Below, piece after piece: positions 13,891-19,979 of a stretch of DNA of 51,664 bases. Made by a program: the position numbers and the translations under genes. How positions within the stretch are numbered: the first letter of the stretch is position 1; each line of letters starts with the position of its first letter. Under the pieces are notes generated by a model. That model made no database searches, was not told the DNA's origin, and saw only the letters and a program-made list of their open reading frames with translations. The stretch is from a virus (taxonomy: Duplodnaviria; Heunggongvirae; Uroviricota; Caudoviricetes), in the IMG/VR virus record IMGVR_UViG_2585427970_000003. One strand, written 5' to 3'.

Positions 13891-13958
13891 GAGACCCGGC
13901 GGGGGAGAAATCCCTCGCCACCTCTGATGTGGCAGGCATCCTCAACGCACCCGCACTT

Positions 13959-13990
13959 AACCCGCTTCGGCGGGTTTTTGTTTTTATTTT
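13959..13990 (+). terminator. Intrinsic terminator after hokD
   Basis: AACCCGC-TTCG-GCGGGTT hairpin followed by T-run. Confidence 0.6.
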
Positions 13991-14703: not shown

Positions 14704-15754
14704 CGTGCGGGTATTACTTAGACCTGTTCTGGTGCCTGAGCTTGGGCTGGTGGTCCTTAAGCCGGGCCGTGAATCCATACAGATATTTCATAATCCTCGA
14801 GTGCTGGTGGAACCGGAACCAAAAAGCATGCGTAATCTGCCATCCGGAGTCGTTCCTGCCGTTCGCCAGCCGCTGGCGGAAGACAAAACATTGCTGCCGT
14901 TTTTTAGTAACGAACGGGTGATTCGTGCTGCTGGCGGCGTTGGCGCATTGTCCGACTGGCTATTACGTCATGTTACATCCTGCCAGTGGCCTAATGGCGA
15001 TTACCATCACACTGAAACAGTCATTCACCGTTATGGTACCGGCGCAATGGTGTTGTGCTGGCACTGCGACAACCAACTGCGTGACCAGACATCGGAATCA
15101 CTGGAGCTGCTTGCTCAACAAAATCTGACAGCATGGGTGATTGACGTCATCCGTCACGCAATAAGCGGTACGCAGGAGCGGGAATTATCTTTGGCTGAAT
15201 TATCCTGGTGGGCGGTCTGCAATCAGGTGGTGGATGCACTACCTGAGGCTGTATCGCGTCGTTCGCTGGGATTACCAGCGGAAAAAATCTGCTCGGTGTA
15301 CCGCGAAAGCGACATCGTACCGGGAGAGCAGACCGCCACCAGCATATTGAAACAACGCACAAAAAATCTTGCACCGTTGCCTTACGCCCACCAGCAACAA
15401 AAATCACCACAGGAAAAGACGGTGGTAAGCATCACCGTTGATCCAGAGTCTCCGGAATCTTTCATGAAGCTGCCTAAACGTCGCCGCTGGGTTAAGGAGA
15501 AATACACACGTTGGGTTAAGACACAGCCGTGTGCTTGCTGCGGTATGCCAGCCGACGATCCGCATCATCTGATTGGTCACGGGCAGGGCGGAATGGGAAC
15601 AAAAGCACATGATCTCTTTGTGTTGCCTTTGTGCAGAAAGCATCACAACGAGCTGCATACGGATACAGTGGCATTTGAAGATAAGTATGGCTCCCAACTG
15701 GAGCTGATATTTCGTTTTATCGATCGCGCGCTGGCAATTGGCGTACTGGCGTAA
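14666..15754 (+). CDS. ydfU: YdfU-like protein (DUF968-type, Cys/His-rich C-terminus)
   Basis: 362-aa ORF beginning at GTG; C-terminal CACCGMPADDPHHLIGHG...CRKHHNELH cluster; immediately upstream of Q. Confidence 0.6.
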   Translation: MRPALSSNGSGGNVRVLLRPVLVPELGLVVLKPGRESIQIFHNPRVLVEPEPKSMRNLPSGVVPAVRQPLAEDKTLLPFFSNERVIRAAGGVGALSDWLLRHVTSCQWPNGDYHHTETVIHRYGTGAMVLCWHCDNQLRDQTSESLELLAQQNLTAWVIDVIRHAISGTQERELSLAELSWWAVCNQVVDALPEAVSRRSLGLPAEKICSVYRESDIVPGEQTATSILKQRTKNLAPLPYAHQQQKSPQEKTVVSITVDPESPESFMKLPKRRRWVKEKYTRWVKTQPCACCGMPADDPHHLIGHGQGGMGTKAHDLFVLPLCRKHHNELHTDTVAFEDKYGSQLELIFRFIDRALAIGVLA

Positions 15755-15767
15755 GTGGAGAACGAGC

Positions 15768-16520
15768 ATGAACCTTGAAGCCTTACCAAAATATTACTCC
15801 CCAAAATCTCCAAAATTGAGCGATGACGCTCCAGCGACAGGCACCGGTTGTTTAACAATTACGGATGTAATGGCAGCGCAGGGGATGGTGCAGTCGAAAG
15901 CACCACTTGGGTTGGCCTTATTTCTGGCAAAAGTTGGTGTTCAGGACCCTCAGTTTGCGATTGAAGGCCTGCTAAATTACGCGATGGCACTGGATAACCC
16001 GACATTGAACAAATTGAGTGAAGAAATCCGGTTACAGATTATTCCTTACCTCGTGAGTTTTGCCTTTGCTGATTACTCCAGGTCTGCGGCAAGTAAGGCT
16101 CGCTGTGAGCATTGTTCAGGTACGGGATTTTATAATGTATTGCGCGAAGTGGTGAAACACTACAGACGCGGGGAATCTGTAATCAAGGAAGAATGGGTGA
16201 AGGAACTATGTCAGCATTGCCATGGTAAGGGCGAAGCCAGCACAGCGTGCAGAGGGTGTAAGGGTAAAGGGATTGTTCTGGATGAAAAAAGAACCCGGTT
16301 TCATGGCGTACCGGTATATAAGATTTGTGGGCGTTGTAATGGAAACCGGTTTAGTCGTTTACCGACCACGCTGGCACGACGTCATGTCCAGAAGCTGGTA
16401 CCAGACCTGACCGATTATCAGTGGTATAAGGGGTATGCGGACGTCATTGGTAAACTGGTAACAAAGTGCTGGCAGGAAGAAGCATACGCGGAAGCGCAAT
16501 TGAGGAAGGTGACGAGATAA
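15768..16520 (+). CDS. quuQ: Late-gene antiterminator Q
   Basis: MNLEALPKYYSPKSPKLSDD...; CxxC...CxxC zinc-finger clusters (CEHCSGTG, CQHCHGKG, CRGCKGKG, CGRCNG); GGAG SD 8 nt upstream of ATG 15768. Confidence 0.75.
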   Translation: MNLEALPKYYSPKSPKLSDDAPATGTGCLTITDVMAAQGMVQSKAPLGLALFLAKVGVQDPQFAIEGLLNYAMALDNPTLNKLSEEIRLQIIPYLVSFAFADYSRSAASKARCEHCSGTGFYNVLREVVKHYRRGESVIKEEWVKELCQHCHGKGEASTACRGCKGKGIVLDEKRTRFHGVPVYKICGRCNGNRFSRLPTTLARRHVQKLVPDLTDYQWYKGYADVIGKLVTKCWQEEAYAEAQLRKVTR

Positions 16521-16551
16521 ATGATTTTTGCTGAAGATGGCGACATGATGT

Positions 16552-16580
16552 TTGCATTTTTCAAAAAATATGGATAAAAT
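16552..16580 (+). promoter_or_regulatory. Late promoter (PR'-like)
   Basis: TTGCAT (16552..16557), 17-nt spacer, TAAAAT (16575..16580), directly downstream of Q. Confidence 0.5.
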
Positions 16581-16625
16581 TTTTTCAACGATGGGTTTTG
16601 TATACCCGACGTTAAGAAAAAGTAG

Positions 16626-16656
16626 AAAACCCGCTGATGAGCGGGTTTTGTGCTTT
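16626..16656 (+). terminator. Intrinsic terminator (tR'-like)
   Basis: CCCGCT-GATG-AGCGGG hairpin followed by TTTTGTGCTTT, about 45 nt after the late promoter. Confidence 0.6.
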
Positions 16657-16941
16657 AAATGGGGCAATGGTAATGTTGAATCTCATCCCGGGACTCATGT
16701 CTGTTAACTTATTATTTAGCTGGTGACTTGGTTATTTGCCTGATGTTTAAAATGTTTTCTTCCAGTACAATGTCCCTAAACACAATGAGTCTGCTTATTA
16801 TATTATTAGCAGAGCTATTACGGCCAAAGTACAGCATAAGCTTTTAAAGCCAATCAACCAGTCATCAAGACAGACGGGGTTATTCATAAAAACTCTCCAT
16901 GTGTGATCCGATGGGGCCTGAAATTAAAGCTTTAATATAGC

Positions 16942-17154
16942 TCATGAAAGGTAAACATTGGCAGCTGAAGGGCCACGCAGACCATTTATCCGGCAAAATT
17001 CCACGCGTAATCCGGTGGTAATTTCTTCTGCATCGCGGAGATTGAGCGCTGAAACATGAAGCTGGACATCGATACGACCATCGGATGGGGTGATAAGACC
17101 CTTGCCGCTTTTGCCGTCAAAGGTTTTGACAATTCCTGTCATTTTACGGGACAA
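16942..17154 (-). CDS. cspF: CspA-family protein (CspF/CspH type)
   Basis: 70 aa [70 protein letters not shown]. Confidence 0.7.
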
Positions 17155-17454
17155 AAAAATTCCTTAATACTGATAACTTGGCGCACTATACACACGTTCC
17201 TGAAGAAAGCTATAGTTTTTTGATGGGGTTGAAGATGGCTGGATGTCTAAAATAAACATTGCTTCATATGTTCAACTATGCGTTAATGATTGCGTCGGTT
17301 TGAAGAACAGACGATATACGAAGTAGTTTACTAAAGCAGTTCTCATTTCAGGTGTTATTCACTTATTCCTTCTTTGAGTCTCTCCAATTAAGTACGAAGT
17401 CGTTTCTGTTATGCAAACCATTTATGCCGAAAGGCTCAAGTTAAGGAATGTAGA

Positions 17455-17670
17455 ATGTCAAATAAAATGACTGGTTTAGTAAAATGGTTTAACGCTGATA
17501 AAGGTTTCGGCTTTATTTCTCCTGTTGATGGTAGTAAAGATGTGTTTGTGCATTTTTCTGCGATTCAGAATGATAATTATCGAACCTTATTTGAAGGTCA
17601 AAAGGTTACCTTCTCTATAGAGAGTGGTGCTAAAGGTCCTGCAGCAGCAAATGTCATCATTACTGATTAA
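17455..17670 (+). CDS. cspB: Cold shock protein CspB
   Basis: 71 aa [71 protein letters not shown]. Confidence 0.9.
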
Positions 17671-17951
17671 AATTCATCGCTCGTCTGTATACGATAACGA
17701 AGAAGGCTGATGCCTGAGTAGAGATACGGACAGAGTAGTGAATATTGGATCTCTTTAATAAAAAGTAAGGAGGTCCAATACATGAAACAATGGCTAGCAT
17801 ATTTGGCAAAATCTTAATCAGGAAAAGTATGCTAACCATTGTGGTGAAGTGCAGGTTTGCTGCATGAATAGTTTTACAGCAGAAGCTAACTGCTGGCATG
17901 GCAAAACAAAGTGCGTAAGTGGATGACTCCCACAAAAAGCACCACAATCTC

Positions 17952-17976
17952 AAACCCGCTCAGGCGGGTTTTTTAT
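17952..17976 (+). terminator. Intrinsic terminator
   Basis: AAACCCGC-TCAG-GCGGGTTT hairpin plus T-run. Confidence 0.55.
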
Positions 17977-18423: not shown

Positions 18424-18639
18424 ATGAAATCAATGGATAAGTTAACAACAGGTGTTGCCTATGGCACATCGGCGGGTAATGCTGGTTTCTGGGCATTGCA
18501 GTTACTCGATAAAGTAACTCCGTCACAGTGGGCTGCAATCGGTGTGCTGGGTAGCCTGGTTTTTGGCCTGCTGACGTATCTGACAAATCTTTATTTCAAG
18601 ATTAAAGAAGACAGGCGTAAGGCTGCGAGAGGAGAGTAA
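18424..18639 (+). CDS. essQ: Class II holin (phage-21 S-type pinholin, dual start Met1/Met4)
   Basis: [71 protein letters not shown]; ATG at 18424 and 18433. Confidence 0.8.
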
Positions 18640-18643
18640 TCCA

Positions 18644-18951
18644 ATGACTCAAGACTATGAACTGGTTGTGAAAGGAGTCCGTAATTTTGAGAATAAAGTT
18701 ACGGTAACTGTAGCCTTACAGGACAAAGAACGCTTTGACGGTGAAATTTTTGACCTGGATGTCGCCATGGACCGTGTTGAAGGAGCTGCGCTGGAGTTTT
18801 ATGAGGCAGCAGCCAGAAGGAGCGTCCGGCAAGTCTTCCTGGAAGTAGCAGAAAAATTGTCAGAAAAAGTTGAGTCTTATCTGCAGCATCAGTACTCCTT
18901 TAAGATTGAAAATCCTGCCAATAAGCACGAGCGTCCTCATCATAAATATCT

Positions 18952-18955
<4 letters not shown>
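18644..18955 (+). CDS. ydfR: YdfR (103 aa)
   Basis: Length and position between holin and endolysin match Qin ydfR. Confidence 0.6.

Positions 18956-19979
<1,024 letters not shown>

Follow-up and report, generated by a model that had tools for sequence, protein, structure and literature searches.

A lambda-like PR'-tR' unit behind quuQ of a Qin-type prophage and its short transcript, ECS025

The window, by which we mean the whole analysed stretch of 51,664 nucleotides (IMG/VR record IMGVR_UViG_2585427970_000003), carries a promoter and a terminator directly behind its antiterminator gene, quuQ. This unit very probably serves a Qin-type lambdoid prophage as its cassette for late-gene regulation, working like the Q/PR'/qut/tR' cassette of lambda. 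Its short terminated transcript is the small RNA ECS025 of E. coli K-12, which is the late-promoter transcript of Qin and the counterpart of lambda 6S RNA. The original prediction had read the region as a PR'-tR' unit, and this reading was supported by the homology of Q, by the homology of PR' and by the published short RNA of K-12. The unit is an ordinary member of a textbook lambda-type system, and knowledge of how such switches work is unchanged by it. What is gained is a plain identity for an orphan K-12 small RNA and for an 'orphan' Term-seq 3' end. The sole part that would be new is a possible conserved hairpin at the 5' end of the transcript. All features lie on the plus strand of the window unless stated otherwise.

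The gene quuQ (ydfT; 15768–16520) encodes a Q antiterminator of 250 aa and is annotated in K-12 as ydfT/antitermination protein. QuuQ matched the Pfam family PF03589 with E = 3.6e-54, besides a DnaJ-type CxxCxGxG match, and it aligned over its full length with the lambda Q chains 7UBM, 4MO1 and 7UBJ (E down to 4.6e-36). Judged by its sequence, 41% identical to lambda Q from end to end, QuuQ is a full-length lambda Q homologue. The reading frame is intact, and the protein is 94% identical to Q of the sequenced phage SfV. A literature search on the function of quuQ/ydfT returned nothing relevant. Of the three unrelated families of Q, PF03589 represents the Q-lambda family, and the logic of the Q/PR'/QBE/SDPE/tR' cassette has been set out in detail (PMC9388147). 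Phages 82 and 21 follow the same logic of promoter, σ70-dependent pause, terminator and Q loading, but their Q proteins belong to the unrelated families PF06323 and PF06530. Their pause element and Q-binding site also lie elsewhere, with the pause of phage 82 at +25.

The promoter starts 32 nt past the stop codon of quuQ, which ends at 16520. It consists of the −35 hexamer TTGCAT (16552–16557), the 17-nt spacer TTTTCAAAAAATATGGA (16558–16574) and the −10 hexamer TAAAAT (16575–16580). The arrangement TTGCAT-N17-TAAAAT directly after Q had been predicted with the correct letters and coordinates. TTGCAT aligned with TTGACT of lambda PR', at the same 17-nt spacing. From the −35 hexamer to +11, 34 of 46 positions were identical to lambda PR' in an ungapped alignment, and the best score reached by shuffled sequences was 27. 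The identity was 4/6 in the −35 hexamer, 11/17 in the spacer, 5/6 in the −10 hexamer and 11/11 from +1 to +11; further on it dropped, to 9/30 over the next 30 bases. The composite pattern TTG-N20-TAnnnT-N6-AACGATGGG had a single occurrence in the window, and 100 shuffled sequences contained none, even when one mismatch was tolerated. On the evidence of these alignments, the promoter at 16552–16580 is homologous to lambda PR', including its σ70-dependent pause element.

Among relatives, the −35 hexamer TTGCAT was invariant in Escherichia/Shigella-type variants and read TTGCAA or similar in more distant genera. The −10 hexamer in relatives was TAAGAT or TAGGAT, with the A at position 2 and the T at position 6 retained. 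The Q-binding element (QBE) of lambda sits in the promoter spacer (PMC9388147), and the spacer of the window is a candidate for the same role. Its motif TTCAAAAA..TGG was retained across QuuQ-type loci whose Q proteins are 63–100% identical, and other Q clades had other spacers. A promoter spacer proper to each Q clade is what would be expected if the spacer holds the Q-binding site.

Six bases past the −10 hexamer stands AACGATGGGTT (16587–16597), the same sequence as +1 to +11 of lambda PR' and at the same distance from −10. It comprises the transcript start A16587, the pause element AACGAT (+1 to +6) and the discriminator-like triplet GGG (+7 to +9), which together occupy 16587–16595. The lambda AACGAT is a −10-like element that is re-bound by σ70, giving rise to the pause at +16/+17, and the lambda GGG acts as a discriminator-like enhancer of the pause element (PMC4005639, PMC5001585). 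From the homology with lambda we infer a σ70-dependent pause near +16/+17 at PR' of the window as well. The pause element had not been noticed in the original prediction, and it is the decisive feature against a chance match.

Two details of this region differ from lambda. Just upstream of the pause element lambda has the −35-like TTGACT, whereas the window has TTTTTT (16581–16586). QuuQ in turn has its zinc-ribbon arm enlarged, relative to lambda Q, by an insertion of 47 aa (residues about 115–161) that contributes two further CxxC knuckles. The arm of lambda Q touches DNA and the repositioned σ region 4 (PMC9388147). Given the missing TTGACT and the insertion in the arm, the details of QuuQ loading may differ from those in lambda, and the two peculiarities may be linked. 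As a separate observation, position 16596 (RNA +10) is a T in the window and a C in K-12 and most relatives. The T adds a U-A pair to the 5' hairpin of the RNA and makes +1 to +11 identical to lambda.

The transcript of this promoter has been mapped in K-12. Positions 15700–17300 of the window were 99.9% identical to the ydfU-ydfT(quuQ)-cspF region of K-12 (1.6 kb). From there, Shinhara et al. (2011) listed AACGAUGGGCUUUGUAUACCCGACGUUAAGAAAAAGUAGAAAACCCGCUGAUGAGCGGGU as a candidate small RNA, named ECS025 and classed as 'IGR, Prophage (Qin/Kim)' (PMC3175480). This sequence, which begins AACGAUGGGC and closes with AGCGGGU, is that of window 16587–16646; the two differ at +10 alone, where the window has U and K-12 has C. 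The ECS025 reads begin at A16587, the A that is +1 in lambda, as given by the read boundaries of a small-RNA library and not by a primary-end-specific method. A northern blot showed a band of ~65 nt in total and in low-molecular-weight RNA, and ECS025 rose 2–3 fold after cold shock, with no change upon mitomycin C or UV treatment (PMC3175480). The start at 16587 was seen in K-12 cells without prophage induction. Romero et al. (2014) found the same RNA in the cspF-ydfT intergenic region, in the orientation of ydfT.

The other end of the RNA comes from Adams et al. (2021), who listed an 'orphan' Term-seq 3' end at NC_000913.3 1642356, minus strand, in at least two data sets (PMC7815308). With coordinates converted by the position of ydfT (K-12 = 1659009 minus window), this is C16653, seven bases past the terminator stem. 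The 5' end at 16587 and the 3' end at 16653 give an RNA of 67 nt, where the original prediction had looked for a short RNA at 16587–16655. Published data for the near-identical K-12 locus therefore show that transcription initiates constitutively at 16587 and that the RNA ends at 16653. ECS025 is the same RNA from the same locus; its authors went no further than calling it an intergenic prophage sRNA and predicting a σ70 promoter for it, and in the literature that could be searched we did not find it named as the PR' transcript of Qin. The supplement of in vitro transcription start sites determined by ROSE had no entry for the quuQ-cspF locus. An Rfam search with the RNA gave no meaningful match, only two sub-threshold overlaps with E about 0.9.

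The predicted RNA folded at −31.2 kcal/mol (z = −8.0). Between its 5' hairpin and the terminator lies the A-rich single-stranded linker AAGAAAAAGUAGAAAA (16614–16629), which was unpaired in the fold and variable among relatives. Such an RNA might be kept mainly for acting in trans as a regulatory sRNA, and being a by-product of the late switch would come second. A precedent exists in Shiga-toxin phages, whose PR'-tR' RNA StxS is trans-acting (Sy et al. 2020, PMC7547250). By description StxS resembles the RNA of the window in being a short RNA from constitutive termination just past a lambdoid late promoter, and in phiSTEC1575-Stx2k it is a Qin-type Q/PR'/tR' module that stands ahead of the toxin genes. 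The ARN-like character of the linker, the U-tail of the terminator and the rise of ECS025 in the cold would suit a regulatory sRNA, and a table built on Hfq RIL-seq data has 'cspF.ydfT.IGR' among its nodes. However, the value in that table is very small (0.0024, in a column that may be an sRNA score), and the linker is the least conserved part of the RNA among relatives. In an hfq mutant, Shinhara et al. reported reduced amounts of ECS007 and ECS009; ECS025 was not among the RNAs for which they gave such a drop. Hfq binding, processing from a longer form and targets have been demonstrated for StxS. We hold a mainly trans-acting role of the Qin RNA to be quite improbable.

The intrinsic terminator tR' (16630–16656) is formed by CCCGCT (16630–16635), the loop GATG, AGCGGG (16640–16645) and the tail TTTTGTGCTTT. 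The predicted CCCGCT/AGCGGG hairpin with a U-run was present as described. It begins 43 nt after the transcript start at 16587, in agreement with the earlier estimate of about 45 nt. The description of the terminator as strong held for the stem, which is a good one with −10.4 kcal/mol, but less so for the U-run, the shortest in the family, with four U followed by a G. At the corresponding position, a terminator is also annotated in the records of SfV and Ayreon. RNAalifold covariation analysis did not recover the terminator, since non-homologous hairpins were misaligned, and the terminator hairpins of relatives were compared one by one.

A second 'orphan' Term-seq 3' end is listed on the same strand at window 16821 (K-12 1642188, minus), 168 nt past tR'. 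It follows a TCTGCT/AGCAGA hairpin without a U-run and could be a product of PR' read-through or a processing site. Given this 3' end, termination at tR' may be incomplete even without Q. The annotation of PhiR42_1 has in this region a hypothetical protein, encoded by a 51-aa ORF with a TTG start (16552–16707). Because it runs across the promoter, the sequence of the short RNA and the terminator, this ORF is probably a spurious call and no real gene.

The tR' hairpin (16626–16649) also folds as a minus-strand terminator facing cspF-ynfS. The terminator scan called it on the minus strand only, because A and T runs (AAAA/TTTT) flank it on both sides. Together with the commonness of the promoter hexamers, this raises the possibility that the promoter is a chance match and the hairpin a bidirectional terminator, common to the convergent quuQ and cspF-ynfS. 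The hexamers on their own were indeed at chance level in this AT-rich DNA, with 12 promoter-like sites in a consensus scan of 6 kb vs 10.2 expected, and cspF-ynfS does converge on the hairpin. A chance match does not, however, account for an RNA that starts exactly at 16587, nor for homology with lambda PR' in an identical geometry. The hairpin was also kept in relatives without a csp gene downstream, and the Term-seq data of Adams et al. (2021) list no 3' end at the hairpin on the K-12 plus strand, which is the strand opposite tR'. The mapped 5' end and the homology rule out a chance promoter with a convergent terminator, the probability of which we put close to nil.

Behind tR' lies a cargo of genes on both strands (16798–17670), made up of ynfS (16798–16887, minus), cspF (16942–17154, minus) and cspB (17455–17670, plus). 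The csp genes were recognised by their CSD domains and a cspA-type leader match in Rfam, and the K-12 annotation agrees. Their predicted place between the promoter-terminator unit and the lysis cassette was borne out by the ORFs and by the annotation of K-12. The lysis cassette essQ-ydfR-rrrQ-rzpQ follows at 18424–19979 and would hold the first late genes for a Q-modified polymerase. Homologues of terminase, portal, tape-measure and J genes were found beyond 21 kb on the same strand, so that the window, unlike K-12, has a full lambda-like virion gene set.

In the proposed mechanism, host σ70 polymerase starts constitutively at A16587 from TTGCAT-N17-TAAAAT. If the homology with lambda holds, σ70 would then re-bind the −10-like AACGAT+GGG, and the polymerase would pause near +16/+17. 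Without Q, the polymerase moves on to end at the hairpin 16630–16645 and leaves the stable 67-nt RNA, as the published K-12 data show. QuuQ made from the early operon would, as in lambda, bind the promoter spacer and load onto the paused polymerase, turning it termination-resistant. By the same homology, a polymerase so modified would pass tR', the csp cargo and later terminators (e.g., 17952–17971), and would reach the lysis and virion genes. Q-dependent read-through of tR' is a step that we infer from homology only.

The cassette of the window and that of lambda with its 6S RNA have in common a homologous Q, a promoter homologous through +11, the identical AACGAT+GGG and identical spacings of 17 and 6 nt. 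In both, an intrinsic terminator comes next, a short RNA is made constitutively and lysis genes lie downstream. The lambda transcript has a length of 194 nt vs 67 nt in the window, and the window, unlike lambda, has a cargo of cold-shock genes between tR' and the holin gene.

Promoter and terminator could also make the 67-nt RNA with the Q switch dead or unused, so that the unit would do no more than permanently insulate the csp/lysis genes from the early region. This would fit with Qin being a cryptic prophage in K-12, with the unresponsiveness of ECS025 to mitomycin C or UV in that strain, and with the csp genes having promoters and leaders of their own. In contrast, the 250-aa frame of quuQ, so similar to Q of SfV, and all promoter elements are intact, the near-identical module of PhiR42_1 belongs to a deposited complete phage genome, and the window, unlike K-12, keeps its full set of virion genes. 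A dead switch is for these reasons unlikely, and we favour a working late-gene cassette.

The same cassette was found in many other phages. Matches to the region were obtained in 35 phage records. Most of these matches spanned query positions 1–250 only; they took in the promoter, the short transcript and the hairpin together with the 3' end of Q, and went no further. In 80 viral contigs with a Q that is 94–100% identical, the region was present in 27 distinct versions. All 27 kept the −35 hexamer, the spacer, the −10 hexamer (TAAAAT, TAAGAT or TAGGAT), an AACGAT-type pause element and a hairpin with a T-run. Among close relatives the homology stopped right after the terminator, with at least eight unrelated sequences beyond the T-run.

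Complete phage genomes with the module ahead of the late genes were those of SfV, mEp460, Ayreon and PhiR42_1. In mEp460, the module is followed by a methylase gene and then by the lysis genes, and in SfV and Ayreon other small accessory genes come right behind it. PhiR42_1 has a module that is 99.8% identical, followed by the same csp genes and holin; a literature search on PhiR phages returned nothing relevant. About 2 kb past the module, phiSTEC1575-Stx2k has tRNA genes and the genes annotated as Stx2 subunits, and records of Stx2c-converting phages also matched the segment of Q 3' end, PR' and tR'. Q, PR', the pause element and tR' thus travel as one block that ends exactly at the terminator. 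The slot behind tR' holds variable phage cargo, cold-shock genes here and methylases in others.

A wider set of Q-lambda-family genes was collected from phages and from one-genome-per-species collections, covering more than 15 genera and 51 distinct downstream regions. The genera included Enterobacter, Mangrovibacter, Kosakonia, Phytobacter, Atlantibacter, Scandinavium, Buttiauxella, Pectobacterium, Edwardsiella, Erwinia and Yokenella. The order was the same in the 51 regions, with a promoter leading to a −10-like element and GGG. Many Enterobacterales share this layout behind a Q gene of the family. A first hairpin with a T-run was called in 47 of them, the other four being two lambda-type regions and two close relatives that were missed by the scan. 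The hairpins started between +28 and +161 and had many different stems, for example CCCGCU/AGCGGG, CCUCGC/GCGGGG, ACCGC/GCGGU and GCCUGGGGU/GCCCCGGGC. Short contigs with a lambda-like Q region also turned up in many assemblies of unrelated organisms, such as Oceanobacillus, Bradyrhizobium, Segatella, Kitasatospora and others (L113–L130, among others). Their PR' regions, where read, matched lambda exactly, and these contigs are therefore most likely lambda DNA contamination of the assemblies.

At its 5' end, the RNA of the window was predicted to form a hairpin of AACG.UGGGU with ACCCG.CGUU (16587–16613), in which the transcribed pause element makes up the start of the 5' arm. Lambda 6S RNA is able to form an equivalent AACGAUGGG/CUCGUUGU helix (L003, 788–815), and an equivalent 5' hairpin was seen at about 25 other Q-lambda-family loci. 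PR' transcripts of the Q-lambda family may thus be selected to begin with a 5' hairpin, in which AACGA... from +1 is paired with a downstream (U)CGUU whose position varies between +17 and +29. We advance this tentatively and would place its chances a little short of even.

Conservation of pairing was most evident within the close family. Among 32 QuuQ-type sequences, 97.7% of cells paired, vs 28–54% with slid partners; these pair counts apply to the close family, as MAFFT left the 3' arms of distant members unaligned. All variation of the QuuQ-type hairpin was on its 3' side, with pairing kept. As the pause element fixes the 5' arm, pair changes on both sides were absent from these 32 sequences, and the shuffle control was not surpassed. 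For single sequences, neither the longest contiguous helix with G-U allowed (p = 0.1–0.5) nor single 4-bp helices were significant.

More distant lineages were compared by their own pairing partners. Of 18 representatives, 15 had an exact complement of their own +1 to +4 between +16 and +29; the null expectation was 4–19% for each. Several lineages with an altered 5' end had a matching partner. Yokenella, with an altered pause element, pairs AAUGAU with GUCAUU, and Pectobacterium pairs AACAA with UUGUU. Other loci showed AACAG/UUGUU (L160) and AAUG/CAUU (L171), and two close relatives differed in both arms, with AUUAU/AUAAU in one (L154) vs UCGUG/CACGA in the other (L159). At least four of the first six bases lay in the 5' arm of the minimum-energy fold in 19 of 27 lineage representatives, which are related to one another, vs 7.2 ± 2.3 (maximum 13) when the tails were shuffled. 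The hairpin was absent from the minimum-energy fold in several lineages, e.g., L090, L101 and L158, and in L167/168 the terminator comes directly after the pause element.

If PR' transcripts are indeed selected for a 5' hairpin, it could shield both the short RNA and the long late mRNA against decay that depends on the 5' end, or else serve as a stopper outside the Q nozzle. No description of a conserved 5' hairpin on PR' RNA was found in the literature that could be searched.

Two further observations concern RNAs elsewhere in the window. The strongest Term-seq 3' end of the region is at window 17783–17785 (K-12 1641226/1641224, minus), about 113 nt past the stop codon of cspB. It falls on the start codon of an 11-codon ORF behind TAAGGAGGT. 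Just downstream of hokD, a weak, sub-threshold Rfam match to isrK was obtained at 13899–13980 (25.1 bits, E = 0.033). IsrK is a Gifsy-1 prophage RNA from an antitermination-regulated promoter.
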